This document shows positions 6,276 to 35,221 of a DNA stretch of 35,221 nucleotides, piece after piece. The notes under the pieces were generated by a model that saw only the letters and a program-made list of their open reading frames with translations, had not been told where the DNA came from and did no database searches. Positions within the stretch are counted from its first letter, which is position 1. Each line of letters begins with the position of its first letter. Source of the DNA: Mesotaenium endlicherianum (taxonomy: Eukaryota); contig WELA01002449.1 of assembly GCA_009602735.1 (NCBI GenBank), forward strand, positions 220,649 through 255,869, read 5' to 3'. A program made the translations under genes and the position numbers.

Positions 6276-6310
6276 TCACTCCCCCGACATAAAATGCAAC
6301 GTCTCGGGCG

Positions 6311-6437
6311 TCAAGTCAAGTCTTACACACGTAAAGAAGATTAGTCAAAAGTTGAAGTCACGTGCCACACATGTAAAGAAGACTAGTCAAAGGCTCCAAG
6401 TCAGGTGATACACATGTAAGGCAGATTAGGCAAGGTC
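6311..6437. repeat. Three degenerate ~42-bp tandem units in the 3' UTR of element A
   Basis: AAGTCA..ACAC(A/G)TGTAAAGAAGA(C/T)TAGTCAA-like unit repeated three times. Confidence 0.65.
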
Positions 6438-11217: not shown

Positions 11218-11936
11218 TGAAATGAATCGACTTACCAAATAGGCGATTAACAATTAATAAAGATCTTTATATCAGCAAGTAATCTTTATGGTATTTCCGT
11301 TAACTCGTTAAACGGCAAAGGACAATACACTAGCAGGGAATACTACTCGTCAGTCAAATGAGAGTAAACTAGCATCAATAATGCAAATCAGTAAACTCAT
11401 ACATAAGCAAGGTTAGAAGACAGTGCGTATCAATGGCTTCTCGCCTTGGATTCAGATCTCTCTCAGTAAGCTGTACAAGAGAGTTGGCCTCGTTTCCGAA
11501 TGCCGAACTCGAGAGCAATGCCTAGCATATGTACATGGAATGAGTTTACTGTTCAACGGTCAGTGCGATGGCACCGCCTACCCGGGAGTTAACCACGTTG
11601 GTAGGACCTCGGTTAACCAAATCCACCGCCATCTCCCATCATCCCGAATAGCCATCCATCATAGGGATGTCATCTGGCTATTCATCTAGCATATCGCACT
11701 TAGATGCATATCAAGGCAGTTCGCTGCTACCGAGTACGGAAGTCAGCTGGCTGTCAAAGAATGGGTCAGCAAGCTGACTTATATGGACTTCAGCCTGCTG
11801 CTTCCGGCTGAGTCATTAAACTGATAATTATGTAAAGTCCAGCAGACTGACTATTAACTAAAGTTCAGCAGGCTGAACTTAATTAACTATTATATTTAAA
11901 TGAATATTATATCCACTAATATACTGATTCATTACA
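11218..11936 (-). repeat. 3' LTR of element B (719 bp)
   Basis: Repeat of 19292-20037, 32201-32921 and (inverted) 25134-25853. Confidence 0.96.
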
Positions 11937-11950
11937 ATCCCTCCAACTTA
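11937..11950 (-). promoter_or_regulatory. Polypurine tract of B
   Basis: TAAGTTGGAGGGAT immediately before the TGTAATG start of the 3' LTR. Confidence 0.85.
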
Positions 11951-12049
11951 ACTTGTTGTCGCCTCGACAACATTAAACTGCAGAAATTTTAAATAAGGGA
12001 ACTGAACCTGACCAGCCTCCCTTACTGACTGCCTCTTCAGCGTGTCACC

Positions 12050-13726
12050 TTAAGGGGTTGTTCCTGGGGCTTCAGGATCAGGAGACGGAGATCTGGACCT
12101 AGATCTGGACAGCCCTCTAGGTCTGTCAGCTGGCCTTCTAAAGAACCCTGTTTGCTCTAAAGTTGGCCCTCGAGGAGAACGGAGGATGGTGGCCTGCTCT
12201 TCAACCACTTGGGTGTTGATTCCCACATAGACAGGCATTCCAGTAGGATGCTGAAATACATTGGCTAGAGGTACATGCCCCTGAGCGGAGGGGGAGGCTG
12301 GCATACCTCTGGCCCACCCGCGTGTCCCTCTTCTGGCACCCCTGTCCTCTGGGGATTTCTGTCTGTGTCTGCTGCCCAGTACAGTCAGATCAGCTTCTTC
12401 CCCTGCTTGGGCAGGTGGGCTGGGGGAGCGAGCGCGGGGTCCAGTTGTCGCCATAACGGGGATCACATTCCACACACCTGATCGTGGTTCTTTAGGAAGT
12501 GCCACTGCCTGTCCCTGGGTATCCTGAGTACCTGCTGCTGATGCTTCTCCTCTGCCTTGTTCTTCTTCCTCATCCTCCTCATCCTCCTCCTCGGAGAGAG
12601 TAGGGGTCTCGTCCACTAAGTCGTCCTGCTCCCTAGTAGACATGGAGTAGTCTACCGACCTCCCTTTCTTAGGGCGCGCTGGAGGTTGCTTGGCCTTCAG
12701 CCTACTGATATCTATCCGGCCTGCATTCTTTGCCCATTTGACAAAGGCATGCTTTCCCTTAGAGAAGTACTCTCTTCCCCTCCTCCTATGTTCCTTGGTC
12801 TCTGCATTCATATTGCTCAGGCATCCATTCAGCCTGGGGTCCCAAGGGGCAATGTGAGGTGGTAGGATGAGATAGCCGTCTAGGCCATAGTGGAAGTCAT
12901 CCGGTTGGGCTCGGTCACACTCCTGCTTCTTATTTGTGACGGTCATCCACCTCCAGTCTGTTGGCTGCTGGTAGTACTGGGGTCCGTGCTCAGCCTTCCT
13001 CAGTTTACACGGGAACCAGTGGGGAGAGAACATCTGCTGTCCTGCTTCCCTGGCCAAGTACTCCCAGCTCCTTCTCTCAACTTCATTGTAAGCTGGCAGG
13101 AGTGTGAGGTAGAATACCGTATCCTTAAAGCTATCGGGCCGCATGCTCACCATCCGGATGAGTCTCTGATCTCCCACTATTCCCGGTATGGGGACCGGCT
13201 TGTCCTCTGAATCATCTGCGAGATACCGGGCCTGCTCTGCTGTATAGCCCACCATCTTAGCATAATCTTCGTAAAGGACCACGCCGGTGTGTGTCTCGAT
13301 GTACCTGTCCAGTGCTGTAGCTCCTTCCTTCTGTAGCAGTGTTGTCTGTTCCAGCCTGTTGATCTCCTGGGCTGCCAGCAATGCTTCCTTCAGGTTATCG
13401 AAGTTTTGGCCACCCACCACAGTATACCTGTAAGTGGCCAAGCTCTTCTGTCTGTCCGCTTCAATCTTTTTTCTTTTCTCCTCTTCTGCCGCTGCCGCTT
13501 CTTCTTGCTGTTTCTTCTGTCTCTCCTCCTCAGCCTTCCTGAGGTTTTCCGCTTCCTGATCCTTCTTCCTCTGTGCCTCTTCTGCCGCCTCTTGTTGCTT
13601 GCGGACCCTTTCTTGTTCTCTCCTGGTGAGGGACGTCGCCGCCAGCTCCTTCTGGTATTGCTCCATTGTCCTCCTGGCTTCTTCTGCCTTGCGCTTTCTG
13701 TCCTCCTTTTGTGTGGTGGGCGCCAT
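12050..13726 (-). CDS. ORF3 of element B: 558-aa protein of unknown function (charged coiled-coil N-terminus, aromatic-rich core, acidic tract, RS/SP-rich tail)
   Basis: Long open frame, nearly identical in D and with a diverged homologue in C. ATG 13726 was chosen because it follows CAG|G and aligns with the start in C. No signal peptide or transmembrane segment is visible. Confidence 0.9.
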   Translation of the reverse strand: MAPTTQKEDRKRKAEEARRTMEQYQKELAATSLTRREQERVRKQQEAAEEAQRKKDQEAENLRKAEEERQKKQQEEAAAAEEEKRKKIEADRQKSLATYRYTVVGGQNFDNLKEALLAAQEINRLEQTTLLQKEGATALDRYIETHTGVVLYEDYAKMVGYTAEQARYLADDSEDKPVPIPGIVGDQRLIRMVSMRPDSFKDTVFYLTLLPAYNEVERRSWEYLAREAGQQMFSPHWFPCKLRKAEHGPQYYQQPTDWRWMTVTNKKQECDRAQPDDFHYGLDGYLILPPHIAPWDPRLNGCLSNMNAETKEHRRRGREYFSKGKHAFVKWAKNAGRIDISRLKAKQPPARPKKGRSVDYSMSTREQDDLVDETPTLSEEEDEEDEEEEQGRGEASAAGTQDTQGQAVALPKEPRSGVWNVIPVMATTGPRARSPSPPAQAGEEADLTVLGSRHRQKSPEDRGARRGTRGWARGMPASPSAQGHVPLANVFQHPTGMPVYVGINTQVVEEQATILRSPRGPTLEQTGFFRRPADRPRGLSRSRSRSPSPDPEAPGTTP

Positions 13727-13930
13727 CCTGCACATGTAACCAGGGCACAAGTTAGTAGGATATGGACCTTTGTCATAGGGATTGCAGGAAGTATGTTAGT
13801 ATTTAGTATAGTGGCTTCGCTGCTGTTTACCTTACAGGATGATTGCTAAAAGTTGACGTAGTTGCGATGCGCTACACATAAACGTATGAGTGTGTTTTTA
13901 TCGCTCTCGCTCACTAACTGTCATATATTT

Positions 13931-13944
13931 TCCCCTCCAACTTA
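13931..13944 (-). promoter_or_regulatory. Second, internal PPT-like tract just downstream of pol in B
   Basis: TAAGTTGGAGGGGA shares 12 nt with the terminal PPT; also at 35161-35174 (D) and 31192-31206 (C). Confidence 0.7.
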
Positions 13945-13993
13945 AATGGAGACAGGACCGCCTGTCACCTTCCCGTGTCAACTGAAATGACAG

Positions 13994-16900
13994 TTATGGA
14001 GGGACTCCAGCGGCCCGAAGGTGGAACCGTGTCAACGCCCCTTTGGCATTGGTCAAGTGGTCCTTAAACTCCCAAGTGTCCCCAGAGGCATCGTAACCCT
14101 TCCATCGAATGAGGTATTTCATGACATATTTAGACGATCGACGGACCGAGCGAGCGTCTAAAATCTCATCGACCTCATATTCCTCAGGGTCGCCGTCCCG
14201 GACAGCGGGGACCGGTCCCGGTTGGACAGGGAACCGACCTGTGAACAGTGTATCACCTTTGATGTACGGTTCCAGGAAGGAGACATTAAAGACCGGGTGC
14301 CCCTTGTATTCAGCTGACATGTTCAGTTTGTAAGCATTCTGACCGACACGACGGACCACCGAATATGGACCGACCCAGACAGGGCCAAGCTTTTTCTTGA
14401 CCACACCAGGGAGGTACAGGTGCTGAGAATGCAGTTTGACTAAATCCCCCTTGGAAAATGTCAGTTCCCGACGGTGTTGATTAGCGTATTTTTGTTGGTT
14501 TTCTTGGGCCGTGTGCAAGTTTCGTTGGACTTCTGACAGGGTGTCAGCAAACTCCTGAGTTAACTGGAGGGAGACCGGGTTGTCAATCCCTTCAGGGTGA
14601 GTTAAAGATTCCCCTAGCACATCTAGAGGAGACTTAGGGACTCTACCCAGGCTGAGTTCAAAAGGAGTTTTGCCCGTTGACGCGTGCACCGCACTGTTGA
14701 CCGCAAACTGAATTTGAGGCAACAGGTCATCCCAATTATCTTGTTTTTGGTTAATATATGCTCTCAGCACCTCCTGCAGAACTCGGTTAGTTCTTTCAGT
14801 CTGCCCATCAGTCTGAGGGTGGTTTGCTGTGCTGAGCAGCTGTTTGACTCCCATTAACCCCATTAAAGCTCTCCAGAACTTAGAGGTGAATTTTGAGTCT
14901 CTGTCTGAGATGATATTAGAAGGGAGCCCATGTTGGCATACTACATGGTTGTAAAACTGTCTCGCTGTTTCGAGTGCAGTCACTTTGACAGTTGTGGGGA
15001 TAAAAATGACCATTTTTGTCAGTTTATCCACGACTACCAGTATTGAATCATGCCCGTTGGCAGTTCTTGGTAGTGAGACCACCCAGTCCATGGATATAGT
15101 TTCCCAGCGTCCCGCTGGGATGGGTAGCGGTTGCAAGAGACCTCCGGGTGGTGTGTGCCGAGACTTATTTCTCTGACACTGGTCACAGGACTTGACATAT
15201 TTCAAGACCTCCCGGGGTAACCCCTCCCAATGATAATGTTTTGCCAGTTTGCCAACAGTTTTGGCCTGCCCCAAATGTCCACCCAGGAGACTGTCATGAG
15301 CTTGACTCAGTAAGAGAGACCTTATTTCCAAGTTATTAGGAATGACCAGCTTCAGCCTGCCTGAAGTGGTTTCAGTCACCCAGACCCCTCCCTTGAGCTT
15401 ATACCCGAGTGCAGTAGCACGACACACACCAGTAGTGGGGCTGGGCTCAAATGTTGGGTCAGAAAGGTAGGCTTTCCTAAGTTGTTCAAGGAAGGACTTT
15501 TTCACCTTTAGTGAAGTGAGTGCACACAGGACTTTATCTACAGCATGCTGACTAAAGTTCCTTTCTTGCAAGTCAGGTCTTCTAGAGAGTGCATCAGCAG
15601 GATTCAACTTCCCTGGTTTGTAGTCGATCTGGACTTGGAACTGCTCCAGCATCTGGCTCCAGCGGTTCTCCCTCCTCGACAGCTTGGACTTCTTCTGAAA
15701 GTGGGTCAGAGCTAGATGATCTGTAATCACCTTAAAAGCTTTACCATGTAAGTATGCTCTCCACTGTTTGAGTACATGAATGATAGCTAGCAGCTCTTTA
15801 TCATGCACTGAGTAATTAATCTCCGCTGGATTAAATTTCATAGACTCATACAACACAGGATGCCACTCCTGCCGTACCTTACCATCCTTTGTGGTTTTGT
15901 CAGCAGGCTGCAACAAAATAGCACCCATGGCAAAATCAGAGGCATCAGTAACCACCTGCACCGGTTTGCTGGGGTCATACACGGCTAGCACTGGGGCAGA
16001 ACAAAGGGCATCTTTAAGGGTCTGGAAGGCAGCCTGCTGCTCTTCCCCCCACACATACCCGATGTCTTTCTTAGTAAGGTCAGTCAGTTTACTGGCCTTT
16101 GTGGAATAATTCTCAATAAATCTCCTATAGTAGTTAGCCAACCCGAGGAAGGATCTAACTTCAGAGACAGACTGTGGTACTGGCCAGTCCCTTATGGTCT
16201 GGACTTTCTTAGGATCCACACTGATGCCCTCTTTACTGACAACGTGGCCTAAGAATTCAATACTTTCCTTAAAGAAATCACACTTGCTCATTTTAGCATA
16301 CAAGTGATTTTTCCGCAGAGTGTCCAGCACTTTCTTTAAGTGTTCAGTGTGCTGAGCTTCATCTTTAGAGAAAATTAAAATATCATCCAGGAAAACTTGC
16401 ACAAACTTATCCAAATAAGGTCTGAAAATGTCATTCATAGCACCCATAAAGGTAGCAGGAGCATTAGTCAGTCCAAATGGCATCACGTTGAACTCATAGT
16501 GTCCATAACGTGTGCGGAAAGCAGTCTTGTGTTCATCCCCCTCAGCAATTCTGATTTGATGATAACCACTCTTGAGATCTATCTTACTGAACACCTTAGC
16601 GCCAGACAGGGTATCAAGCAAGTCCTCGATCCTGGGTAAAGCATACTTGTTCTTTACTGTAATTCTGTTCAGGGCTCTGTAATCCACACACATCCGCATA
16701 CTGCCATCCTTTTTCTTAACAAATAGGATAGGTGCGCCGTACGGTGATTTACTGGGAGAAATGTAACCATTTTCCTCCAGCTCTGCAATCTGTGTTTTCA
16801 ACTCCTCGCTCTCCAAATAAGACAAGCCATAAGTGCGTTGCCAGGGTGGCTGGCTACCAGGTAATAGATCAATCCTATGATCTACTTCCCTTTTAGGGGG

Positions 16901-17803
16901 TAGTCCTGGAGGCATGTTAAACACATCAGTGTACTGAGCAACAATTTTTGCAGCAGTAGGGTGCTCCGGAGGGCTTACCTTTTTCTCAACCACTTCTTCA
17001 GGTTGAGGAGGTACCTCTCTTAGCAGCAGACAGAACATTCTGTCTTCCTTCTGGTTCCAGCTTTTGACGAACTCCATTGCATTCAGCAACTTGCATCCTT
17101 CTGGAAGCCTCTTCTTTTCCTTCATTTGCCATCCACACAGGACAAGAGGAAGAGCACTGGTGGGTGCCAAGTCAGTCTGCCCATCACTGGCTCCTCTCAC
17201 TTTAACTGTACCTCTGCTCCAACACACTTCAGCTTGATGTCTATTAAGCCAGGACCTGCCTAGCACGAGATCATAAAAGCCAGTGTTGAGTACCTCAAAT
17301 GTAAGCGTTTCAGTTAGAACTGCAATGCCAGAACCTAACTGGACCTCAATAGGCTTGGTTATAACTCCTCCCGGGATACTTGAGGCATCTCCAAGGAATA
17401 TTTTTCTATTCCCTTGGGTGACAGTAGGCAGCCTTAGCCGCTTAACTAAGTCCTTGTGAATAAAAGTATGTGACGCCCCTCCGTCAACAAATGCCCTCAC
17501 CTTCCTACCTGCAATCATGCAATGCAGTAGGATAGGGGGGACTGTCTTTTCCTGACTTTCGCATTGTTCTCCTGACGTAGCAAAGAAATGTTGGACATCA
17601 GGTGGAACAAGAGCATCCAGAGTGTGCACTCTCTGGACGTCTATATTACTGATGGTCTCCTTTATCTGTTTGTCAGGCATGCATAGTGAATCCAGTTCAG
17701 CAGGACCCATAATACCTGCTACGAGGGCAGCTAGTGACGACTCACTATCTCTAGCATCCTCACAGTCAGTAGACTGGATTACTGACTGTTGCTGTCTTTT
17801 AAA
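13994..17803 (-). CDS. pol: Pol polyprotein of B (PR-RT-RNase H-integrase-chromodomain), probably made as Gag-Pol by -1 frameshift
   Basis: [42 protein letters not shown] zinc finger; SMDW/SDRD/QTER catalytic [30 protein letters not shown]. The frame is open upstream of ATG 17710 through the slippery site. Confidence 0.97.
17762..17803 (-). promoter_or_regulatory. Predicted -1 ribosomal frameshift signal of B
   Basis: U UUA AAA in the gag frame (17803-17797), 7-nt spacer, perfect 10-bp stem ACAGUCAGUA/UACUGACUGU; pol is in the -1 frame. Confidence 0.8.
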
Positions 17804-19257
17804 GGCTGGTCTTTTCTCTCGACCTTAGGCAGGTGCTTGACCGGACACTGTTCTCTGTAGTGGCCTTTCTGCTGACAATGGTAGCAAGTAGATTTTGCTG
17901 AGGCTGGTCTCGGCTTAGTCCTACCACCACCCCTTCCATAGCCACCTCGAGAGGGACCACCTCTACCTCTAGACTGAATAGCATTGTACTCATACTCATA
18001 TTCATCACCCTGATTATCCTCAGCCTGGTCTCCTTCAACTGCATTGTAGGAACCGTGGGGCTTTTTGACAATCTTAGACACCAAAGCGTTACTCTGGCGC
18101 TTGTGATTGAACTGCTGCTGATCCCAGGCGTCAGCATCCTGGATCAAGTCAGCCAGTTTCTCATACTTTTTCTCAGCAAAATGACCAGAGACCTCGGATT
18201 TCAAGCCATACCTGAAGTATGCTATCCTATACCGTTCTGGCAAATCAGGCTGCTTCATCATGTTCTCTTGGAACTTTTGAGCAAACTCAGCAACTGAAGT
18301 GGTCTGCTTCAGTGTCAGGGAGATCATCGCATAGATAGCTTTCTCCTGCTGGTTGATGACATCAAACTTCTCATGCAACTTCTCGACAAACTCTACCCAC
18401 GTAGGGTCACCGAGTTGCCGAGCCTTACGCTCTTCCTTCCAGTAAAGCCACCAGTCTGCGGCACTGCCTTTCAGTAGCGCACCGGTGTGCCTGACCTTCT
18501 CGTAATCTTGCAGTTCTGGGTAGTTCTCCAGCCACTGCTCAACATCCGCGAGAAACTTGATCAGGTAATATTTTCTGTTTCCCTCAGGATCATAGTCCTG
18601 GGGAGGTTTCGGCTTGGGCTTACTAGGCCCTCGGCCACCACCACTAGTGGTGTGAGACCCCAGTTGGTCTCTGTCCCGGAGTAGGGACATTATGATTCTT
18701 TTGTCCTCCTGCTGGGACTGATACATGGTCGCCATTTGCGACTGCATCTGAACGAACAATGCTCCCAAGTCTACATTTTGGGGTGGTAGATTAGCAAATG
18801 CAGCAGCAGCATTGGCATCTACTCGCTGAGTAGTGTCCTCAACAATCCCTCTTGCTCCTGCAGCAGCAATTCCTGCCGCATTCAGCCGGTCACGTATTTG
18901 ACCTAGGGGTACATTGAGTTGTACGGCAGGAGGTGGGTTCAGAACATTGGCCCTTGATGCCATAAGTTCTTCAACAGTGCGCTCGTCAGCTGGCTGTCCT
19001 TCCCTCCTTTGTATATCTTCAGCGGCCTTTGCTACTTGTTCAGCTTCTAGTCTGGCTATCTCCTCCTCAGCTTGCTGAGCTGCGACTGAGGCAATAGCAG
19101 CTGCCTCATCTGCAGCCTCCCTAGCTGCAGTATCCGCTACTGCTTCCGAATAGGTACGGTTTCCCGCTACATGGCTTTCCGCCTGGTTTTCGACATTCTC
19201 GTTATCCTGGTTCTCCATGTCTCGGGAGTTGCTAGTTTGAGACCTTGTCCTTACCAT
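17779..19257 (-). CDS. gag: Gag of element B (492 aa)
   Basis: Starts MVRTRS 21 nt after the [39 protein letters not shown] tract and [14 protein letters not shown] knuckle. Confidence 0.96.
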
Positions 19258-19278
19258 ACAAAGAAGACTGTGATAACT

Positions 19279-19290
19279 GCTCCGATACCA
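19279..19290 (-). promoter_or_regulatory. Primer-binding site of B (tRNA-iMet type)
   Basis: TGGTATCGGAGC, 1 nt inside the 5' LTR. Confidence 0.88.
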
Positions 19291-19291
19291 C

Positions 19292-20037
19292 TGAAATGAA
19301 TCGACTTACCAAATAGGCGATTAACAATTAATAAAGATCTTTATATCAGCAAGTAATCTTTATGGTAATTTCCGTTAACTGGTTAAACGGCAAAGGACAA
19401 TACACTAGCAGTGAATAATACTCGTAAGTCAAATGCGAGTAAACTAGCATCAATAATGCAAATCAGTAAACTCATACATAAGCAAGGTTAGAAGACAGTG
19501 CGTATCAATGGCTTCTCGCCTTGGATTCAGATCTCTCTCAGTAAGCTGTACAAGAGAGTTGGCCTCGTTTCCGAATGCCGAACTCGAGAGCAATGCCTAG
19601 CATATGTACATGGAATGAGTTTACTGTTCAACGGTCAGTGCGATGGCACCGCCTACCCGGGAGTTAACCACGTTGGTAGGACCTCGGTTAACCAAATCCA
19701 CCGCCATCTCCCATCATCCCGAATAGCCATCCATCATGGGGATGTCATCTGGCCATTCATCTAGCAGGTGGTACTTAGATGCATATCAAGGCAGTTCGCT
19801 GCTACCGAGCACGGAAGTCAGCTGGCTGTCAAAGAATGTGTCAGCAAGCTGACTTAAGTTGACTTCAGCCTGCTGCTTTTGGCCGAGTCATTAAACTGAT
19901 AATTATGTAAAGTCCAGCAGACTGATTATTAACTAAAGTTCAGCAGGCTGACTACTAACTAAAGTTCAGCAGGCTGAACTAAATTAACTATTATATTTAA
20001 ATGAATATTATATCTACTAATATACTGATTCATTACA
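19292..20037 (-). repeat. 5' LTR of element B (746 bp)
   Basis: Matches the 3' LTR plus one extra 26-bp unit and a 1-bp indel. Confidence 0.96.
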
Positions 20038-20493
20038 CACGGGGTGCACCCGTAGCTTGATATACAGTTGCTTGATAGTTACGCCACCATGATGTTGCTG
20101 CTCCTCTAAGTAAGGTAACGGCAAAGGGAACGTAGTCCTCCTCGGGTACTTCAAGGAATGCGAGGTACGTTTCCACTTGGTAGAGCCATAAGTTCAAGTT
20201 GGCTCCTTTCCCGGGGTTGAAAGTGTTGGGTTTGCCGGGCTTGATGAGTTTCCTTGCTCTCGTAGGCTCTTGTGGAGGCGCTTGAGCCGTGGCTGGATTT
20301 GGAGCGTTGCTTGCAATAGGGGCAGTTATGGCAGCCATAGCTTCTCTTGACGCTTGTACGGTTGCTTCATAGGTGGCCAAGCCCACTTGGTTGTGGATAG
20401 CCATTAGGAAGGCTGCCCACTCATTTGGGGGAACTCCTTGCGATGGGGTCAACCTTGCCAGAGCGGCTATCATGGGATCTGATGGTGCTCCTC
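20038..20493 (-). pseudogene. gag: gag of element A, middle fragment
   Basis: KPNTF..WLYQVETYL..LLRGAATSWW retrotransposon Gag motif; lies between element B and the solo LTR. Confidence 0.9.
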
Positions 20494-21414: not shown

Positions 21415-21528
21415 TCCTTGTGGTGGCAGATTTTCTTTATTGGGCTCTCCCGTCGGTGCTGGAGGAGGGTCTTTTAGAGGTGTATTGCCTCCTTCAAAAG
21501 CTTGTTGTTGATCTTGAGGATAGGCCAT
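21415..21528 (-). pseudogene. gag: gag of element A, N-terminal fragment
   Basis: ATG 20 nt after the PBS. MAYPQDQ...NLPPQG joins in frame to APSDPMIAALARL after the solo LTR is removed. Confidence 0.85.
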
Positions 21529-21548
21529 CTTCTTGTGCTACCAAAGTG

Positions 21549-21564
21549 CCTGGCTCCAATACCA
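21549..21564 (-). promoter_or_regulatory. Primer-binding site of A (tRNA-iMet type)
   Basis: TGGTATTGGAGCCAGG, 1 nt inside the 5' LTR; the plant iMet consensus is TGGTATCAGAGCCAGG. Confidence 0.85.
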
Positions 21565-21565
21565 C

Positions 21566-22065
21566 TGTAGTGAAACAGATAGATGAAGTACTTAATGAAG
21601 TAGAATACTTTATCTATTGAAGACTAGGATCTTTGAGCACAAGTGGTAGCTTCTTGAAAGAATGATAGCTTCTTGAGAGTTGATATATCTCTGGAATTTG
21701 GCAAGTACAAGAGTGATTCTAGAATGCCTTTCTAGTTTCTAGCTCTTGTCTATATACTTGCTACGTAAGTAATTTCTAAGGTGCATGTTAATGTGTTGGC
21801 ACCCAACACATCCCAGAACTTGCCACCTCTTTCTAAAATAATGTACACATGTTCTTTTGACCTAAAGATGGCATATTTGACTTTTGCCACATGGAGTTCT
21901 TCTAGGTCCTTCCTCTAAATCTGAAAAGGCCTCAGAAGGTTCAAAGAACATGAACCCAGTCACTAGAGTATCTGTTCACACTTGACTGCACACAATATTA
22001 CTCCAAAATTATTCAAAAACATTAAAATGAAAACTAACTAATGTGTTCTAAGTCATATCACTACA
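21566..22065 (-). repeat. 5' LTR of element A
   Basis: Direct repeat of 5773-6275 with many transition differences; abuts the PBS. Confidence 0.95.
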
Positions 22066-22070
22066 CAACT

Positions 22071-24734: not shown

Positions 24735-25077
24735 ACATACTCATTTTCATGATGGGAGAAGATCAAAGCAAGGACGTTATCTTGCAGACGATTGAACAAC
24801 AAAGGAATACAAGTGCAAAACATTGGATTGTTGGGCAGCCAAATCTAGCACAAAGTCAACATTAAAGTATGATCTTGCAAGAGCCAAAGAGCTGAAGACC
24901 ATTTTTGACACACTCACTTTCACGGTGGGAGAAGGTCAAGGCGAGGCCGTTATCTTGCAAGCAGTTGGAACAACAAAAGAATACGAGTACGGCAAACCAT
25001 TGGATTGTTGGCCAACTAAATCCAGCACACAGTCACTATTTAAGTATGACTTTGCAAGAGCCAAAAAGCTGAAGAAC
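24735..25077 (+). repeat. Two diverged ~175-bp tandem copies, apparently decayed coding repeats
   Basis: TTGGATTGTTGG at 24823 and 25000 (177 bp, 59 codons apart); peptides DCWAAKSSTKSTLKYDLARAKELK and DCWPTKSSTQSLFKYDFARAKKLK. Confidence 0.7.
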
Positions 25078-25133: not shown

Positions 25134-25853
25134 TGTAATGAATCAGTATATTGGTTGATATAATATTCATTTAAATATAACAGTTAAATAAGTTCAGCCT
25201 GCTGAACTCTAGTTAATAATCAGTCTGCTGGACTTTATATTTAATATCAGTTTAATGACTCAGGCGAAAGCAGCAGGCTGAAGTCAGCTTAAGTCAGCTT
25301 GCTGACACATTCTTTGACAGCCAGCTGACTTCCGTACTCGGTAGCAGCGAACTGCCTCGATATGCATCTAAGTGTGGTATGCTAGATGAATGGCCAGATG
25401 ACATCCCTATGATGGATGGCGATTCGGGATGATGGGAGATGGCGGTGGATTTGGTTAACCGAGGTCCTACCAACGTGGTTAACTCTCGGGTAGGGGTTTC
25501 CATCGCACTGGCCGTTGAACAGTAAACTCATTCCATGTACATATGCTAGGCATTGCTCTCAAGTTCGGCAATCGGAAACAAGGCCAACTCTCTTGTACAG
25601 CTTACTGAGAGAGATCTGAATCCAAGGCGAGAAGCCATTGATACGCACCGTCTTCTAACCTTGCTTATGTATGAGTTTACTTAGTGCATTATTGATGCTA
25701 GTTTACTCGCATTTGATTTACGAGTGTTGTTCACTGCTAGTGTGTTGTCCTTTTGCCGTTTAATCAATTAACGGAAAATCCATAAAGATTACTTGCTGAT
25801 AGAAAGATCTTTATTAATTGTTAATTGCCTATTTGGTAAGTCGATTCATTTTA
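25134..25853 (+). repeat. 5' LTR of element C
   Basis: Reverse complement of the B LTRs; TGTAATG start, terminal CA mutated to TA. Confidence 0.95.
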
Positions 25854-25887
25854 GTGGTATCCGAGCAGTTATCACAGTCTTCTTTGT

Positions 25888-27366
25888 ATGGTAAGGACAA
25901 GGTCTCAAACTAGCAACTCCCAAGACATGGAAAACCAGGATAACGAGAATGTCAAAAACCAGGCGGAAAGCCATGTAGCGGGAACCCGTACCTATTCTGA
26001 AGCAGTGGCAGATACTGCAGCTAGAGAGGCTGCAGATGAGGCAGCTGCTATTGTCGCAGTTGCAACACAGCAAGCTGAGGAAAAGAGAGCCAGATTAGAA
26101 GCTGAACAATTAGCAAAGGCCGCTGAAGATACATAAAGGAGGGAAGGACAGCCAGCTGACGAGCGCACTGTTGAAGAACTTATGGCAGCAAGGGCCAATG
26201 TTCTGAACCCACCTCCTGCTGTACAACTCAATGTACCCCTAGGTCAAATACGTGACCGGCTGAATGCGGCAGGAATTGCTGCTGCAGGAGCAAGAGGGAT
26301 TGTTGAGGACACTACTCAGCGAGTAGATGCCAATGCTGCTGCTGCATTTGCTAATCTACCACCCCAAAATGTAGACTTGGGAGCATTGTTCGTTCAGATG
26401 CAGTCGCAAATGGCGACCATGTATCAGTCCCAGCAGGAGGACAAAAGAATCATAATGTCCCTACTCCGGGACAGAGACCAACTGGGGTCTCACACCACTA
26501 GTGGTGGTGGCCGAGGGCCTAGTAAGCCCAAGCCGAAACCTCCCCAGGACTATGATCCTGAGGGAAACAGAAAATATTACCTGATCAAGTTTCTCGCGGA
26601 TGTTGAGCAGTGGCTGGAGAACTACCCAGAACTGCAAGATTACGAGAAGGTCAGGCACACCGGTGCGCTACTGAAAGGCAGTGCCGCAGACTGGTGGCTT
26701 TACTGGAAGGAAGAGCGTAAGGCTCGGCAACTCGGTGACCCTACGTGGGTAGAGTTTGTCGAGAAGTTGCATGAGAAGTTTGATGTCATCAACCAGCAGG
26801 AGAAAGCTATCTATGCGATGATCTCCCTGACACTGAAGCAGACCACTTCAGTTGCTGAGTTTGCTCAAAAGTTCCAAGAGAACATGATGAAGCAGCCTGA
26901 TTTGCCAGAACGGTATAGGATAGCATACTTCAGGTATGGCTTGAAATCCGAGGTCTCTGGTCATTTTGCTGAGAAAAAGTATGAGAAACTGGCTGACTTG
27001 ATCCAGGATGCTGACGCCTGGGATCAGCAGCAGTTCAATCACAAGCGCCAGAGTAACGCTTTGGTGTCTAAGATTGTCAAAAAGCCCCACGGTTCCTACA
27101 ATGCAGTTGAAGGAGACCAGGCTGAGGATAATCAGGGTGATGAATATGAGTATGAGTACAATGCTATTCAGTCTAGAGGTAGAGGTGGTCCCTCTCGAGG
27201 TGGCTATGGAAGGGGTGGTGGTAGGACTAAGCCGAGACCAGCCTCAGCAAAATCTACTTGCTACCATTGTCAGCAGAAAGGCCACTACAGAGAACAGTGT
27301 CCGGTCAAGCACCTGCCTAAGGTCGAGAGAAAAGACCAGCCTTTAAAAGACAGCAACAGTCAGTAA
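25888..27366 (+). pseudogene. gag: gag of element C (premature stop)
   Basis: Collinear with B gag; CAA->TAA at 26134-26136. Confidence 0.94.
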
Positions 27367-30300
27367 TCCAGTCTACTGACTGTGAGGATGCTAGAGATAG
27401 TGAGTCGTCACTAGCTGCCCTCGTAGCAGGTATTATGGGTCCTGCTGAACTGGATTCACTATGCATGCCTGACAACCAGATAAAGGAGACCATCAGCAAT
27501 ATAGACGTCCAGAGAGTGCACACTCTGGATGCTCTTGTTCCACCTGATGTCCAACATTTCTTTGCTACGTCAGGAGAACAATGCGAAAGTCAGGAAAAGA
27601 CAGTCCCCCCTATCCTACTGCATTGCATGATTGCAGGTAGGAAGGTGAGGGCATTTGTTGACGGAGGGGCGTCACATACTTTTATCCACAAGGACTTAGT
27701 TAAGCGGCTAAGGCTGCCTACTGTCACCCAAGGGAATAGAAAAATATTCCTTGGAGATGCCTCAAGTATCCCGGGAGGAGTTATAACCAAGCCTATTGAG
27801 GTCCAGTTAGGTTCTGGCATTGCAGTTCTAACTGAAACGCTTACATTTGAGGTACTCAACACTGGCTTTTATGATCTCGTGCTAGGCAGGTCCTGGCTTA
27901 ATAGACATCAAGCTGAAGTGTGTTGGAGCAGAGGTACAGTTAAAGTGAGAGGAGCCAGTGATGGGCAGACTGACTTGGCACCCACCAGTGCTCTTCCTCT
28001 TGTCCTGTGTGGATGGCAAATGAAGGAAAAGAAGAGGCTTCCAGAAGGATGCAAGTTGCTGAATGCAATGGAGTTCGTCAAAAGCTGGAACCAGAAGGAA
28101 GACAGAATGTTCTGTCTGCTGCTAAGAGAGGTACCTCCTCAACCTGAAGAAGTGGTGGAGAAAAAGGTAAGCCCTCCGGAGCACCCTACTGTTGCAAAAA
28201 TCGTTGCTCAGTACACGGATGTATTTAATATGCCTCCAGGACTACTCCGTAAGAGGGAAGTAGATCATAGGATTGATGTATTACCGGGTAGTCAGCCACC
28301 TTGGCAACGCACTTATGGCTTGTCTTATGTGGAGAGCGAGGAGTTGAAAACACAGATTGCAGAGCTTGAGGAAAATGGTTATATTTCCCCCAGTAAATCA
28401 CCTTACGGCGCACCCATCCTATTTGTTAAGAAAAAGGATAGCAGTATGCGGATGTGTGTGGATTACAGAGCCCTGAACAGAATTACGGTAAAGAACAAGT
28501 ATGCTTTACCCAAAATCGAGGACTTGCTTGATACCCTGTCTGGTGCTAAGGTGTTCAGTAAGATAGATCTCAGAAGTGGTTATCATCAAATCAGAATTGC
28601 TGAAGGGGATGAACACAAGACTGCCTTCCGCACACGTTATGGACACTATGAGTTCAACGTGATGCCATTTGGACTGACTAATGCTCCCGCAACCTTTATG
28701 GGTGCTATAAATGACATTTTCAGGCCGTATTTGGATAAATTTGTGCAAGTTTTCCTGGATGATATTTTAAATTTGTCTAAAGATGAGACTCAGCACGCTG
28801 AACACTTAAAGACAGTCATGGACATTCTGAGAAAAAATCACTTATATGCTAAAATGAGCAAGTGTGATTTCTTTAAGGAAAGTATTGAATTCTTAGGCCA
28901 CGTTGTCAGTAAAGAGGGCATCAGTGTGGATCCTAAGAAAGTCCAGACCATAAGGGACTGGCCAGTACCACAGTCTGTCTCTGAAGTTAGATCCTTCCTT
29001 GGGTTAGCTAACTACTATAGGAGATTCATTGAGAATTATTCCACAAAGGCCAGTAAACTGACTGACCTTACTAAGAAAGACATCGGGTATGTGTGGGGGG
29101 AAGAGCAGCAGGCTGCCTTCCAGACCCTTAAAGATGCCCTTTGTTCTGCCCCAGTGCTAGCCGTGTATGACCCCAGCAAACCGGTGCAGGTGGTTACTGA
29201 TGCCTCTGATTTTGCCATGGGTGCTATTTTGTTGCAGCCTGCTGACAAAACCACAAAGGATGGTAAGGTACGGCAGGAGTGGCATCCTGTGTTGTATGAG
29301 TCTATGAAATTTAATCCAGCGGAGATTAATTACTCAGTGCATGATAAAGAGTTGCTAGCTATCATTCATGTGCTCAAACAGTGGAGAGCATACTTACATG
29401 GTAAAGCCTTTAAGGTGATTATAGATCATCTAGCTCTGACCTACTTTCAGAAGAAGTCCAAGCTGTCGAGGAGGGAGAACCGCTGGAGCCAGATGCTGGA
29501 GCAGTTCCAAGTCCAGATCGACTACAAACCAGGGAAGTTGAATCCTGCTGATGCACTCTCTAGAAGACCTGACTTGCAAGAAAGGAACTTTAGTCAGCAT
29601 ACTGTAGATAAAGTCCTGTGTGCACTCACTTCACTAAAGGTGAAAAAGTCCTTCCTTGAACAACTTAGGAAAGCCTACCTTTCTGACCCAACATTTGAGC
29701 CCAGCCCCACTACTGGAGTGTGTCGTGCTACTGCACTCGGGTATAAGCTCAAGGGAGGGGTCTGGGTGACTGAAACCACTTCAGGCAGGCTGAAGCTGGT
29801 CGTTCCTAATAATTTAGAAATAAGGTCTCTCTTACTGAGTCAAGCTCATGACAGTCTCCTGGGTGGACATTTGGGGCAGGCCAAAACTGTTGGCAAACTG
29901 GCAAAACATTATCATTGGGAGGGGTTACCCCGGGAGGTCTTGAAATATGTCAAGTCCTGTGACCAGTGTCAGAGAAATAAGGCTCGGCACACACCACCCG
30001 GAGGTCTCTTGCAACCGCTACCCATCCCAGCGGGACGCTGGGAAACTATATCCATGGACTGGGTGGTCACACTGCCACGAACGGCTAACGGGCATGATTC
30101 GATATTGGTAGTCGTGGATAAACTGACAAAAATGGTAATTTTCATTCCCACAACTGCCAAAGTAACTGCACTCGAAACAGCGAGACAGTTCTACAACCAT
30201 GTAGTATGCAACATGGACTACCCTCTAATATCATCTCAGACAGAGACTCAAAATTTACCTCCAAGTTCTGGAGAGCTTTAATGGGGTTAATGGGAGTCAA

Positions 30301-31142
30301 ACAGTTGCTCAGCACAGCAAAGCACCCTCAGACTGATGGGCAGACTGAAAGAACTAACCGAGTTCTGCAGGAGGTGCTGAGAGCATATATTAACCAAAAA
30401 CAAGATAATTGTTGCCTCAAATTCAATTTGCGGTCAACAGTGCGGTGCACGCGTCAACGGGCAAGACTCCTTTTGAACTCAGCCTGGGTAGAGTCCCTAA
30501 GTCTCCTCTAGATCTACTGGAGGAGTCTTTAACTGACCCTGAAGGGATTGACAATCCGGTCTCCCTCGAGTTAACTCAGGAGTTTGCTGACACCCTGTCA
30601 AAAGTCCAACAAAACTTGCACAAAGCCCAAGAAAACCAACAAAAATACGCTAATCAACACCGTCGGGAGCTGACATTTTCTAAGGGCGATTTAGTCAAAC
30701 TGCATTCTCAGCACCTGTACCTCCCTGGTGTGGTCAAGAAAAAGCTTGGCCCTGTCTGGGTCGGTCCATATTCGGTAGTGCGTCGTGTCGGTCAGAATGT
30801 TTACAAACTGAACATGTCAGCGGACTATAAGGGTCACCCGGTCTTTAATGTCTCCTTCCTGGAACCATACATCAAAGGTGATACACTGTTCACAGGTCGG
30901 TTACCTGTCCAACCGAGACCGGTCCCCGTTGTCCGGGACGGCGACCCTGAAGAATATGAGGTCGATGAGATTTTTTAGACGCTCGCTCGGTCCGTCGATC
31001 GTCTAAATATGTCATGAAGTACCTCATCCGATGGAAGGGTTACGATGCCTCTGGGGACACTTGGGGGTTTAAAGACCAGCTGACCAATGCCAAAGGGGCG
31101 TTGAAACGGTTCCACCTTCGGGCGGCTGGGGCACCGCCCTAA
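27342..31142 (+). pseudogene. pol: pol of element C (frameshifted in integrase and chromodomain)
   Basis: Collinear with B pol; same slippery site and hairpin (27342-27383); 1-bp deletion near 30210, 10-bp deletion near 30410, extra Ts near 30975. Confidence 0.95.
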
Positions 31143-31477
31143 CTGTCCCTTCAGTAGACATGGGAAGGTGACAGGAGGTCCTGTCTCCATATAAGTTGGA
31201 GGGGGATGTGACAGTTAGTGACAGTTGTGACAGGCAGCCCACCTTTATAATTAAGTTGGAGGAAGTGGTATTCTGTTGCGGGATCAGCCGGAAAATCTCT
31301 GATAACCATATTACACACTCAACCTGCGCTCACACTCACTTTCTCTCCCTTATATTCACTCACACCAGGTATTTCACACTAGGAACTCTCTCGATCGCGT
31401 TCCTCTTCATCAAGAGCATTCAGTAGCGGCAAAATATCATGACTTCACTAACTGCATTGTGTTTATGATTGAGCAGG

Positions 31478-32200
31478 ATGACTCAAAAGTCGAAACTCAA
31501 GAGGAAGAGAAGGGCGGAAGAGGCACATGCAGAATACTTGCAATTCCGTGGAGACATCGAATCATCCTCCATCTCCGCTCGGGAATCACAACGACTCCAA
31601 CAACAGCGAGAGGCACAGAAGAAGAAGGAGGAGGAGGAACAGGCCAGACTGAGGCAGGAAGAACTGGACAGAAAAGCCACAGAGGAGGCCAAGAAAGCAG
31701 AGGAGGAGAGGCAAGCTGAGGAGAAGCGGAAGCAGCAGGCTGAAGAAGAGCAAAGGAGAATCAGCAGCTACCGCTACACAGTACTGGGCAAGGGCTTTGA
31801 TCTACTGGAGGAGGCCTTCAAGTATGCTCAGAGAAGTCGCAGTGAGTCACAGAAGGACATCCTCCAGAGGGAAGGGGAGACATCCGAAAACTTTGACAAG
31901 TATATAGAGGTCAGCACGATTACGCCAAGATGGTAGGATTTACGGTCAGAGAGGCCAAGGCAATGGCCCAGGTGAACGAAGCAGGGGCTGTATCAATTCC
32001 TGGTATCTGGGGGGAAGATAGGGTCATCAGGATGATCCCCATGGACGCGGACAGCTTTAAGGACTCTACATCCCATAACAGGTTCAAGGCCATGTATAAT
32101 GAGGTGGAGAGAAGGAGGTGGGAATTCTTGGCCAAGGAAACCAGTCAGCTAGACTTTGCATAGCACTGGTACCCTTGTACTCTTAAAAGGACAGACCCTA
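31478..32200 (+). pseudogene. Divergent ORF3 homologue of element C (frameshift ~31915, stop 32161, cut by D)
   Basis: YRYTVLG, DYAKMVG, IPGIWGEDRVIRM, DSFKD, YNEVERRRWEFLAKE and HWYPCTL align with B ORF3 YRYTVVG, DYAKMVG, IPGIVGDQRLIRM, DSFKD, YNEVERRSWEYLARE and HWFPCKL. Confidence 0.9.
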
Positions 32201-32921
32201 TGAAATGTATCGACTTACCAAATAGGCGATTAACAATTAATAAAGATCTTTATATCAGCAAGTAATCTTTATGGTACTTTCCGTTAACTGTTTTAACGGC
32301 AAAAGGACAACGCACTAGCAGTGAATAATACTCGTCAGTCAAATGAGAGTAAACTAGCATCAATAATGCAAATCAGTAAACTCATACATAAGCAAGGTTA
32401 GAAGACAGTGCGTATCAATGGCTTCTCGCCTTGGATTCAGATCTCTCTCAGTAAGCTGTACAAGAGAGTTGGCCTCGTTTCCGAATGCCGAACTCGAGAG
32501 CAATGCCTAGCATATGTACATGGAATGAGTTTACTGTTCAACGGTCAGTGCGATGGCACCGCCTACCCGGGAGTTAACCACGTTGGTAGGACCTCGGTTA
32601 ACCAAATCCACCGCCATCTCCCATCATCCCGAATAGCCATCCATCATAGGGATGTCATCTGGCCATTCATCTAGCATATCGCACTTAGATGCATATCAAG
32701 GCAGTTCGCTGCTACCGAGTACGGAAGTCAGCTGGCTGTCAAAGAATGTGTCAGCAAGCTGACTTAAGTTGACTTCAGCCTGCTGCTTCCGGCTGAGTCA
32801 TTAAACTGATAATTATGTAAAGTCCAGCAGACTGACTATTAACTAAAGTTCAGCAGGCTGAACTTAATTAACTATTATATTTAAATGAATATTATATCCA
32901 CTAATATACTGATTCATTACA
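32201..32921 (-). repeat. 3' LTR of element D
   Basis: Direct repeat of the B LTRs. Confidence 0.96.
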
Positions 32922-33034
32922 ATCCCTCCAACTTAACTTGTTGTCGCCTCGACAACATTAAACTGCAAAAGCTTTAAATAAAGAAACTGACCCTGACCAG
33001 CCTCCCTTACTGACTATCTTTTCAGCCTGTCACC

Positions 33035-34711
33035 TTAAGGGGTGGTTCCTGGGGCTTCAGGATCAGGGGACGGAGATCTGGACCTAGATCTGGACAGCCC
33101 TCTAGGTCTGTCAGCTGGCCTTCTAAAGAACCCTGTTTGCTCTAAAGTTGGCCCTCGAGGAGAACGGAGGATGGTGGCCTGCTCTTCAACTATTTGGGTG
33201 TTGATTCCCACATAGACAGGCATTCCAGTAGGATGCTGAAATACATTGGCTAGAGGTACATGCCCCTGAGCGGAGGGGGAGGCTGGCATACCTCTGGCCC
33301 ACCCGCGTGTCCCTCTTCTGGCACCCCTGTCCTCTGGGGATTTCTGTCTGTGTCTGCTGCCCAGTACAGTCAGATCAGCTTCTTCCCCTGCTTGGGCAGG
33401 TGGGCTGGGGGAGCGAGCGCGGGGTCCAGTTGTCGCCATAACGGGGATCACATTCCACACACCTGATCGTGGTTCTTTAGGAAGTGCCACTGCCTGTCCC
33501 TGGGTATCCTGAGTACCTGCTGCTGATGCTTCTCCTCTGCCTTGTTCTTCTTCCTCATCCTCCTCATCCTCCTCCTCGGAGAGAGTAGGGGTCTCGTCCA
33601 CTAAGTCGTCCTGCTCCCTAGTAGACATGGAGTAGTCTACCGACCTCCCTTTCTTAGGGCGCGCTGGAGGTTGCTTGGCCTTCAGCCTACTGATATCTAT
33701 CCGGCCTGCATTCTTTGCCCATTTGACAAAGGCATGCTTTCCCTTAGAGAAGTACTCTCTTCCCCTCCTCCTATGTTCCTTGGTCTCTGCATTCATATTG
33801 CTCAGGCATCCATTCAGCCTGGGGTCCCAAGGGGCAATGTGAGGTGGTAGGATGAGATAGCCGTCTAGGCCATAGTGGAAGTCATCCGGTTGGGCTCGGT
33901 CACACTCCTGCTTCTTATTTGTGACGGTCATCCACCTCCAGTCTGTTGGCTGCTGGTAGTACTGGGGTCCGTGCTCAGCCTTCCTCAGTTTACACGGGAA
34001 CCAGTGGGGAGAGAACATCTGCTGTCCTGCTTCCCTGGCCAAGTACTCCCAGCTCCTTCTCTCAACTTCATTGTAAGCTGGCAGGAGTGTGAGGTAGAAT
34101 ACCGTATCCTTAAAGCTATCGGGCCGCATGCTCACCATCCGGATGAGTCTCTGATCTCCCACTATTCCCGGTATGGGGACCGGCTTGTCCTCTGAATCAT
34201 CTGCGAGATACCGGGCCTGCTCTGCTGTATAGCCCACCATCTTAGCATAATCTTCGTAAAGGACCACGCCGGTGTGTGTCTCGATGTACCTGTCCAGTGC
34301 TGTAGCTCCTTCCTTCTGTAGCAGTGTTGTCTGTTCCAGCCTGTTGATCTCCTGGGCTGCCAGCAATGCTTCCTTCAGGTTATCGAAGTTTTGGCCACCC
34401 ACCACAGTATACCTGTAAGTGGCCAAGCTCTTCTGTCTGTCCGCTTCAATCTTTTTTCTTTTCTCCTCTTCTGCCGCTGCCGCTTCTTCTTGCTGTTTCT
34501 TCTGTCTCTCCTCCTCAGCCTTCCTGAGGTTTTCCGCTTCCTCATCCTTCTTCCTCTGTGCCTCTTCTGCCGCCTCTTGTTGTTTGCGGACCCTTTCTTG
34601 TTCTCTCCTGGTGAGGGGCGTCGCCGCCAGCTCCTTCTGGTATTGCTCCATTGTCCTCCTGGCTTCTTCTGCCTTGCGCTTTCTGTCCTCCTTTTGTGTG
34701 GTGGGCGCCAT
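33035..34711 (-). CDS. ORF3 of element D (558 aa)
   Basis: Differs from B ORF3 at only three visible residues (S/P, Q/E, V/I). The start region is duplicated around an N (assembly join). Confidence 0.88.
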   Translation of the reverse strand: MAPTTQKEDRKRKAEEARRTMEQYQKELAATPLTRREQERVRKQQEAAEEAQRKKDEEAENLRKAEEERQKKQQEEAAAAEEEKRKKIEADRQKSLATYRYTVVGGQNFDNLKEALLAAQEINRLEQTTLLQKEGATALDRYIETHTGVVLYEDYAKMVGYTAEQARYLADDSEDKPVPIPGIVGDQRLIRMVSMRPDSFKDTVFYLTLLPAYNEVERRSWEYLAREAGQQMFSPHWFPCKLRKAEHGPQYYQQPTDWRWMTVTNKKQECDRAQPDDFHYGLDGYLILPPHIAPWDPRLNGCLSNMNAETKEHRRRGREYFSKGKHAFVKWAKNAGRIDISRLKAKQPPARPKKGRSVDYSMSTREQDDLVDETPTLSEEEDEEDEEEEQGRGEASAAGTQDTQGQAVALPKEPRSGVWNVIPVMATTGPRARSPSPPAQAGEEADLTVLGSRHRQKSPEDRGARRGTRGWARGMPASPSAQGHVPLANVFQHPTGMPVYVGINTQIVEEQATILRSPRGPTLEQTGFFRRPADRPRGLSRSRSRSPSPDPEAPGTTP

Positions 34712-34993
34712 CCTGCNTTCTGTCCTCCTTTTGTGTGGTGGGCGCCATCCTGCACATGTAACCAGGGCACAAGTTAGTAGGATATGGACCTTTGTCATAG
34801 GGATTGCAGGAAGTATGTTAGTATTAGTATAGTGGCTTCGCTGCTGTTTACCTTACAGGATGATTGCTAAAAGCTGACGTAGTTGCGATGCGCTACACAT
34901 AAACGTATGAGTGTGTTTTAGGGTGAGTTAAGTGATGTAGTGTTATGCGAGGCCCTTTTTCCTTCTGCTCAAGGTGCGTTATGTGGGCCAAGT

Positions 34994-35163
34994 TGTCCCC
35001 TCTGTCATTAAGTTGACACTTAGGGTTCACGTAACTGTTCTTTTATCGCTCTCGCTCACTAACTGTCATATATTTTCCTGTCCCCTCTGTCATTATGTTG
35101 ACACTTAGGGTTCACGTAACTGTTCTTTTATCGCTCTCGCTCACTAACTGTCATATATTTTCC
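34994..35163. repeat. 85-bp tandem duplication in the pol-ORF3 spacer of D
   Basis: 34994-35078 and 35079-35163, with one mismatch seen. Confidence 0.9.
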
Positions 35164-35221
35164 CCTCCAACTTAAATGGAGACAGGACCGCCTGTCACCT
35201 TCCCGTGTCAACTGAAATGAC

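Follow-up and report, generated by a model that had tools for sequence, protein, structure and literature searches.

Two anciently diverged ORF3 versions on a near-identical gag-pol backbone in a chromovirus family of Mesotaenium endlicherianum, probably brought together by recombination

That LTR retrotransposons recombine in a modular fashion is ordinary and well documented. The grass centromeric chromoviruses CR/CRM are described as including recombinant subfamilies, whose segments are joined at discrete breakpoints and which have proliferated to high copy number; as their source, either template switching after co-packaging or recombination within nested insertions was proposed (PMC4079200). 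Envelope genes of retroviruses and endogenous retroviruses are reported to have phylogenies discordant with those of gag-pol, which is ascribed to recombination (PMC10536682). In plants, a sense ORF located between pol and the 3' LTR is known as aORF-3S ("env-like"). Its expression involves splicing in some elements, for example in Bagy2, and many aORF-3S carry transmembrane segments; a search of this review by term gave 0 mentions of chromoviruses (PMC7264820). Captured ORF3s that are shared between diverse element types were described in LTR retrotransposons of bdelloid rotifers (PMC5408684).

The locus presented here is another example of such modularity, with a layout bounded by copies of the PPT. 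It resembles CR/CRM in that chromodomain-bearing Ty3/gypsy elements appear to combine segments of mixed ancestry at a discrete breakpoint. The segments exchanged in CR/CRM, however, come from the LTRs, UTRs and polyproteins of parents that can be identified, whereas here it would be a gene downstream of pol, together with its leader, that was swapped; the divergence is also far deeper (it reaches saturation of synonymous sites) and no parent was seen whose backbone is diverged to match (PMC4079200). As in envelope swapping, a 3' module downstream of pol is discordant with gag-pol, although our ORF3 is not an envelope protein (PMC10536682). Like an aORF-3S, it is an additional sense-strand ORF downstream of pol and upstream of the 3' LTR; unlike many of them, it has no transmembrane segment (PMC7264820). 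The rotifer case is alike by description, since ORF3 behaves there too as a module moving between backbones, but in rotifers one ORF3 is found across different backbones, whereas we find two ORF3 classes on one backbone (PMC5408684).

The window, i.e. the whole analysed stretch of 35,221 nt, is a nest of LTR retrotransposons, in which we distinguish elements A, B, C and D. Comparison of B, C and D covers three copies in this single window. Gaps (a single N and a run of 44 N) are present elsewhere in the window. The elements and the parts of their backbones are located as follows.

5773-6280 and 21566-22070, LTR-like repeats of element A, 91% identical to each other
11218..20037, minus strand, element B, chromovirus-type Ty3/gypsy with B-type ORF3 (self-BLAST, ORFs, Pfam, flanks)
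19292..20037, minus strand, 5' LTR of B, 746 nt
17779..19257, minus strand, gag of B, 492 aa, with Ty3_capsid, Retrotrans_gag and zf-CCHC
13994..17710, minus strand, pol of B, 1,238 aa, with protease, RT, RNase H, integrase, SH3_Tf2-1 and chromodomain in this order
11218..11936, minus strand, 3' LTR of B, 719 nt
25134..32200, plus strand, element C, decayed, with B-like backbone and C-type ORF3, left flank ATAGC, cut by D
25134..25851, plus strand, 5' LTR of C
25888..27366, plus strand, gag of C, with an in-frame stop at 26134
27435..31139, plus strand, pol of C, with three frame breaks (near 30209-30224, 30409-30451 and 30969-31002)
32201..35221, minus strand, element D, 3' part only, inserted into ORF3 of C, flank CCCTA
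32201-32921, minus strand, LTR of D

Element B is complete and intact, with the 5-bp TSD CACGG on both sides. Its LTRs are direct repeats of the TG...CA type that begin with TGTAATG and end with TTTCA, and they are 96.8% identical over 660 columns. Reading of the sequence places PBS-like TGGTATCGGAGC after the 5' LTR and the PPT AAGTTGGAGGGA before the 3' LTR; no tRNA gene that might be the source of the PBS primer was found in the window. Ty3_capsid and Retrotrans_gag exceed the Pfam cut-offs in gag, and zf-CCHC scores 19.8 bits, just below its cut-off of 20.8, with CX2CX4HX4C visible. Pol has matches to protease (residues 60-170), RVT_1 (331-490), RNase H (554-691), Integrase_H2C2 (795-851) and rve (871-965), and PF00385 Chromo is located at residues 1178-1230 of 1,238 with E 2e-08 and a score above the gathering score. 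Because of this order of pol domains with the chromodomain, B is a chromovirus-type Ty3/gypsy (Metaviridae) element, with an extra sense ORF, here called ORF3, between pol and the 3' LTR. Element A is an older, different chromovirus; B sits inside its gag, and the pol of A (7136-10506) is 39% identical to that of B. Element D aligns with B over 2,516 columns at 98.7% identity. The flanks ATAGC, left of C, and CCCTA, at D, are as the first-pass annotation had given them.

Starting inside the 5' LTR, C aligns with B from 25194 to 31221 with 96.4% identity over 6,045 columns. Proteins encoded by gag and pol are 97-98% identical between the two elements, pol having 97.0% over 930 residues. It had been claimed that the last ~390 residues of Gag are identical, and at nucleotide level the two elements do match completely throughout C 26220-27476, a stretch of 1,256 nt that holds the last ~382 gag codons. 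Two other statements about the backbone were too generous. Pol of C does not differ by scattered substitutions only; the three frame breaks split it into four tblastn pieces in different frames. Neither do the LTRs align base for base, as 6-7% of positions differ (the 5' LTR of C is 93.0% identical to the 3' LTR of B and 94.0% to the LTR of D). Three difference-free blocks, of 1,256, 471 and 325 nt, stand out in the B/C alignment, the 99.9th percentile of the longest gap between differences in simulation being 383 nt. As private decay amounts to at least 2% elsewhere in C, the blocks are suggestive of local gene conversion between inverted copies 5 kb apart, or of homogenisation during assembly. 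They exaggerate the impression of an identical chassis, and when they are removed, the contrast with ORF3 is unchanged.

Identity of B and C, taken per 200 columns, is 0.90-1.00 before C ~31221, which equals B ~13911, and 0.43-0.66 after it, the drop itself being from 0.93-0.98. Loss of similarity beyond a PPT-like tract at ~31220, as noted from the letters alone, is therefore borne out. The break is non-coding and lies ~80 nt past the stop of pol, directly 3' of AAGTTGGAGG. The region on its far side is organized as listed here.

13934..13943, minus strand, post-pol PPT core of B, AAGTTGGAGG; the B/C similarity ends just 3' of it
13724..13756, minus strand, ACTAAC...GCAG/GATG motif of B, ending in the ATG of ORF3 (13726-13724)
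12050..13735, minus strand, B-type ORF3, intact, 561 aa
11940..11949, minus strand, 3' PPT core of B, directly upstream of the 3' LTR
31193..31202, plus strand, post-pol PPT-like core of C, AAGTTGGAGG, common to B and D; backbone-like sequence ends at ~31203-31221
31253..31262, plus strand, second PPT-like core, in C only, 60 nt beyond the first
31222..31477, plus strand, leader of the C-type ORF3, 257 nt, unalignable to the B leader save for the motif at its 3' end
31447..31480, plus strand, ACTAAC...GCAG/GATG motif of C, ending in the ATG of ORF3 (31478)
31478..32199, plus strand, C-type ORF3, N-terminal ~250 codons only, ATG at 31478
35164-35173, minus strand, post-pol PPT core of D
33035-34798, minus strand, B-type ORF3 of D
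32925-32934, minus strand, PPT core of D

Six copies of the PPT core AAGTTGGAGG are present in the window, while 0.16 are expected. B and D each have one directly before the 3' LTR, at the position of the functional PPT; B, C and D all have one ~50 nt past the end of pol, and C has an additional one at the junction. From the positions of the cores it follows that a PPT copy stands on either side of ORF3 with its leader, and that the junction in C has a doubled PPT block. The block around the second core of C is similar to the first post-pol block as well as to the 3' PPT region of B, and the doubling is possibly a footprint of the joining of two blocks.

Second copies of the PPT inside an element, upstream of the 3' PPT, are known as cPPT in lentiviruses and as PPT2 in Ty1, and internal plus-strand priming is familiar from retrovirology. 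The post-pol copy described here is comparable as an internal PPT copy. It is a candidate primer, and its position coincides precisely with the edge of the variable block.

Beyond the break, the same order is kept in C as in B: leader, ATG and a homologue of ORF3. The C-type ORF3 is a true, collinear homologue of ORF3 of B (tblastn E 5e-32), with identical residues at 59 of 139 and 46 of 94 aligned positions; these 42-49% agree with an earlier estimate by eye of under half. In C the gene is damaged. There is a frameshift near 31915-31933, where C is 19 bases shorter than contigs from sequencing runs X5 and X6, and a stop at 32161-32163, where at least 98% of the depth in run X1 carries other letters; then D cuts the gene at 32200. 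Both lesions are private to C and missing from most other C-type contigs. Contigs of X5 and X6 continue beyond 32196-32199 for at least 255 letters; over the 30 letters inspected, they keep the frame of ORF3 and resemble the next motif of the B-type. As these contigs read on in frame, D interrupted a C-type ORF3 that was longer.

ORF3 reads open over 561 aa in B and over 559 aligned aa in D. Its N-terminal ~100 residues are strongly charged and rich in A/E/K/R/Q. They are followed by a central region of ~250 residues, which holds the motifs conserved between classes, and by a tail of ~210 residues rich in P/R/S/G/E, which includes an acidic run and ends in an RS-rich stretch. Single-sequence AF2 gives a mean pLDDT of 42.6, with only a helix at 8-105 predicted confidently (pLDDT ~80-90). 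No hydrophobic segment is present (the maximal Kyte-Doolittle mean over 19 residues is 0.73) and no signal peptide was noted. Because of the missing hydrophobic segment ORF3 is not envelope-like, and its identity as an envelope glycoprotein was rejected, the protein being without a transmembrane segment and without a Pfam family. We predict an intracellular accessory protein instead.

Relatives of ORF3 were sought in several collections. A word-index protein search with whole ORF3 and with residues 95-350 gave 0 matches; since residues 200-480 of gag, used as control, were equally blank, this reflects missing coverage of the transposon proteins of this host in the database and is uninformative on how rare ORF3 is. 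Exhaustive phmmer with residues 95-350 against 1.84 billion representatives gave 0 matches at E <= 0.001. There was nothing above cut-off in Pfam, the best E among PDB sequences was 0.99, and the best scores in the ESM Atlas (0.86 and 0.75) were both below the lead level of 0.9. The ORF3 protein and the B/C/D alignment had 0 confirmed matches in metagenome contigs, and ORF3 had 0 confirmed matches in viral contigs. Blastp against gag and pol of its own element found nothing (best E 3.9). On a limited literature search ORF3 is undescribed; we do not claim its absence from print.

How deep the split between the two ORF3 classes is can be judged from Nei-Gojobori counts, which were used for ORF3, gag and pol. 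Between B and C, ORF3 has pS 0.81, which is beyond correction, and pN 0.35 over 232 aligned codons. On the same counts, the 491 codons of gag have dS 0.032 and dN 0.0096, and the first 930 codons of pol have dS 0.090 and dN 0.015. Within the B class, ORF3 of B and D differ by 3.5 synonymous and 3.5 non-synonymous changes, i.e. dN 0.0027, dS 0.0093 and dN/dS ~0.29, a ratio based on 7 changes only. Judging from the open frames of B and D, from this ratio and from the private nature of the lesions in C, ORF3 is coding. Its central region appears functional, having stayed conserved since a split so old that synonymous sites are now saturated. Signs of positive selection on ORF3 are absent both between the classes (pN < pS) and between B and D (dN/dS ~0.29).

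Saturated synonymous sites, together with an unalignable non-coding leader, mean that the common ancestor of the ORF3 blocks is far older than that of the backbone, and hence that the elements are of mixed ancestry. The first-pass annotation had offered two explanations, both held to be typical of host-conflict genes: an exchangeable cassette swapped by recombination between lineages, and strong diversifying selection. The former is upheld by the abrupt non-coding break, by pS of 0.81 and by the abundance of both classes. The latter supposes a single lineage, in which ORF3 diverged in place while gag-pol was conserved, and it could draw on the sharing of only 42-49% of residues by the ORF3 proteins as against 97-98% in gag and pol, and on the low complexity of the N-terminal coiled-coil and of the tail, which are able to evolve fast. 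But selection that raises dN neither saturates synonymous sites (pS 0.81, with pN lower, against dS of 0.03-0.09 in gag-pol) nor erases the leader upstream, and so it is insufficient. The abruptness of the break, its position outside the coding region and the low dN/dS of the B class speak against divergence in place as well, and we give it almost no credence.

We therefore turn to recombination between element lineages, which would have produced a mosaic of ORF3 blocks on the near-identical backbone of one high-copy family, and which we regard as the probable explanation. Data from other sequencing runs are relevant to it. X1 contains tens of thousands of short contigs of the family, mostly ~100-300 nt long. 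Contig depth summed at a likeness of at least 85%, which is a crude and poor measure of copy number, has means of ~283k in C-type bins (31284-32179) and ~506k in B-type bins (33076-34716), and it amounts to 451k in the junction bin 31156-31283, 614-755k at the end of pol and 1.0-2.2M in the LTR. As a rough guide, both ORF3 classes are thus abundant and jointly about equal to the depth of the backbone. Both were also found in runs of three organism labels, X5 and X6 having other labels than X1 and coming from other studies. B-type contigs in X5/X6 are 1,248 nt long with 4 differences and 602 nt long with 1 difference. Of the C-type contigs in these runs, one has 907 nt with 26 differences plus indels, the other 417 aligned nt with 24 differences. 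The 907-nt contig, from X5, spans 31162-32057 and so crosses the break, with ~60 nt on the backbone side (in the shared post-pol block, not in pol) and 836 nt of C-type sequence.

These data bear on the simplest objection, that the junction in C is an assembly chimera, or that a deletion or ectopic recombination at this single locus joined a B-like element to a fragment of another family. A dense nest of near-identical repeats, interrupted by the gaps mentioned above, invites such suspicion, and so do the blocks of 100% identity that are shared by B and C, two inverted copies with 5 kb between them, and that suggest conversion or homogenisation; moreover, contigs from short reads are unable to span whole elements. 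Yet a chimera is unlikely when a contig from another organism label and another study crosses the junction. The depth of the junction bin in X1 is high, the depth at the end of pol less that of the B-type roughly equals that of the C-type, and the replacement is collinear throughout (post-pol block, leader, ATG and ORF3), which is hard to reconcile with an accident at one locus. We hold an event or artefact of this kind to be very improbable.

It could also be argued that C once belonged to a separate diverged family and that, after it had inserted, gene conversion from B-like neighbours replaced its gag-pol and 5' LTR. The difference-free blocks, the longest of them well above the simulated limit, and the private changes of C elsewhere would be in accord with that. 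Letters of the wider population of contigs point in a different direction. Of ~120 differing places in LTR-gag-pol, the 36 best supported ones were printed and compared with the letter of B. At 31 of these 36 the letter of B is the "other" letter of the population. Its share is at least 0.85 of the depth at 21 of the 31 places, which are private decay of C, and 0.23-0.66 at the remaining 10, which are shared haplotypes and possibly linked to the class of ORF3. In the C-type block too, the population letter departs from C at most of the 30 printed places, which marks C as an old copy. The 21 places where the letter of B prevails lie outside the identical blocks; because old private changes are found here on B-like sequence, these parts of C were B-like long ago. 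Conversion would in addition have to span all 6 kb and to halt exactly at the post-pol PPT, and the same junction was found in X5, with C-type depth being high. Overwriting of C is accordingly a highly unlikely source of the pattern. Divergence of the backbone between the two classes is of the order of 1% or less, compared with ~45% for the ORF3 block. That C-type elements also have a B-like 3' LTR is inferred from the 5' LTR of C, the 3' part of C, with the 3' breakpoint, the 3' end and its TSD, lying beyond D, outside the window.

As for the way in which lineages recombined, the evidence fits template switching and ectopic recombination at DNA level alike; most plausibly, reverse transcriptase switched templates between co-packaged RNAs. 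Homologous switching would then keep gag-pol and LTRs homogenised across the whole family. The two ORF3 blocks would be too unlike to recombine internally, and each would be inherited as a unit. Plus-strand priming, or short homology, at the bounding copies of the PPT may favour junctions at these positions. No donor lineage, i.e. one with C-type ORF3 on equally diverged gag-pol, was seen among contigs that are too short to link the class of ORF3 to the backbone.

A bolder version of recombination between lineages can be imagined. ORF3 would be an undescribed accessory gene of chromoviruses, expressed from a spliced RNA and maintained as two ancient, non-recombining cassettes by frequency-dependent selection, for example because they evade a restriction or silencing factor of the host. 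The PPT copies on both sides of the cassette would then act as a recombination hotspot and provide any backbone with either cassette. We consider this combination unlikely and mention it as a speculation.

Whatever the route, one locus shows a homogenised replication backbone that carries two old versions of an accessory gene. Family names based on RT would mask the two classes of ORF3, and divergence of LTRs or gag-pol is uninformative on the age of ORF3. Having no detectable relatives and a conserved centre, ORF3 is a reasonable target for learning about roles of non-envelope accessory proteins in chromoviruses.

Expression of ORF3 might depend on a short motif at its start. ACTAAC followed 15-30 nt later by GCAG/GATG is present at the ATG of ORF3 in B, D and C; these are the only 3 matches in the window, compared with 0 expected, and the motif is kept inside leaders that are otherwise unalignable. 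It resembles a branch point with a 3' splice site, which suggests that ORF3 is expressed from a spliced subgenomic RNA. In such a case, the acceptor would be located directly before the ATG, at 13727/13726 in B and 31477/31478 in C, and ORF3 would be translated from the spliced molecule. PolyA raw reads from X22 and X23 (6-12% of each run) have depth 0 on the B-type ORF3; a few of them cover the C-type region, a larger number the LTRs, and at this very low depth they contain no joints. A 30-letter loose end at 25952 has no match within the window. Many of the LTR reads share common loose ends and may stem from few loci. Apart from the LTR retrotransposons, the window contains a fragment of a piggyBac-type transposase, and CpG depletion is seen in it.

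The intact element B and the decayed copy C, which share a gag-pol and LTR backbone, do not differ from each other at a single position within three blocks of 1,256, 471 and 325 nt, listed here with the other annotated features.

Features of the stretch
3461-3504: assembly gap of 44 N
4423-5112, plus strand: ORF encoding part of a piggyBac-type transposase (PF13843 DDE_Tnp_1_7, E 9.5e-13), which hints at a host not necessarily among the land plants
5773-22070, minus strand: element A, an older and different chromovirus
24735-25075: imperfect tandem repeat of ~165 nt, two copies, 82% identical, just upstream of the 5´ LTR of C
26220-27476, 27686-28157 and 29027-29352: the difference-free blocks as they lie in C, each with its matching part in B

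In simulation, the 99.9th percentile for the length of such a block was 383 nt. Because the blocks stand against this benchmark and C carries 2% or more of private changes outside all three of them, we suggest that they arose either by gene conversion between neighbouring copies or by homogenisation during assembly or polishing. The two copies lie in inverted relative orientation, with 5 kb between them.

From one copy to another, the ORF3 leader is unstable in structure. In D, the third copy, of which only the 3´ part is present, the leader holds ~180 nt absent from B, and an 85-nt tandem duplication is found at 34994-35163 (minus strand; copies 98.8% identical). A further short duplication of D at ~34717-34757 (minus strand), which adjoins a single N at 34717, extends the ORF3 frame upstream to an ATG at 34798, for a reading of 587 aa.

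Directly after the gag ATG, both B (19255-19250) and C (25888-25896) carry GTAAGG (ATG|GTAAGG), a sequence similar to a 5´ splice donor. This motif could be the partner of the acceptor-like motif before ORF3; no RNA joint was found in polyA reads, the depth of which is very low. Since many polyA reads have identical loose ends, much of the RNA signal of the family may originate at a small number of loci, chimeric or read-through, instead of reflecting element transcription. One common loose end lies at 25952 (18 and 4 reads in the polyA runs X22 and X23), another at the LTR edge, 32201 (13-60 reads in these runs).

Element A received the insertion of B in its gag. Its pol (7136-10506) contains a Chromo domain and is 39% identical to that of B. 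Between the LTR-like repeats of A, at 5773-6280 and 21566-22070, identity is 91%. By tblastn, no ORF3 homologue was detected 3´ of A pol.

Outside this transposon nest, the first 2 kb have a higher G+C content (55-58%) and a weaker CpG depletion (o/e 0.78 vs 0.30-0.62 in the nest).
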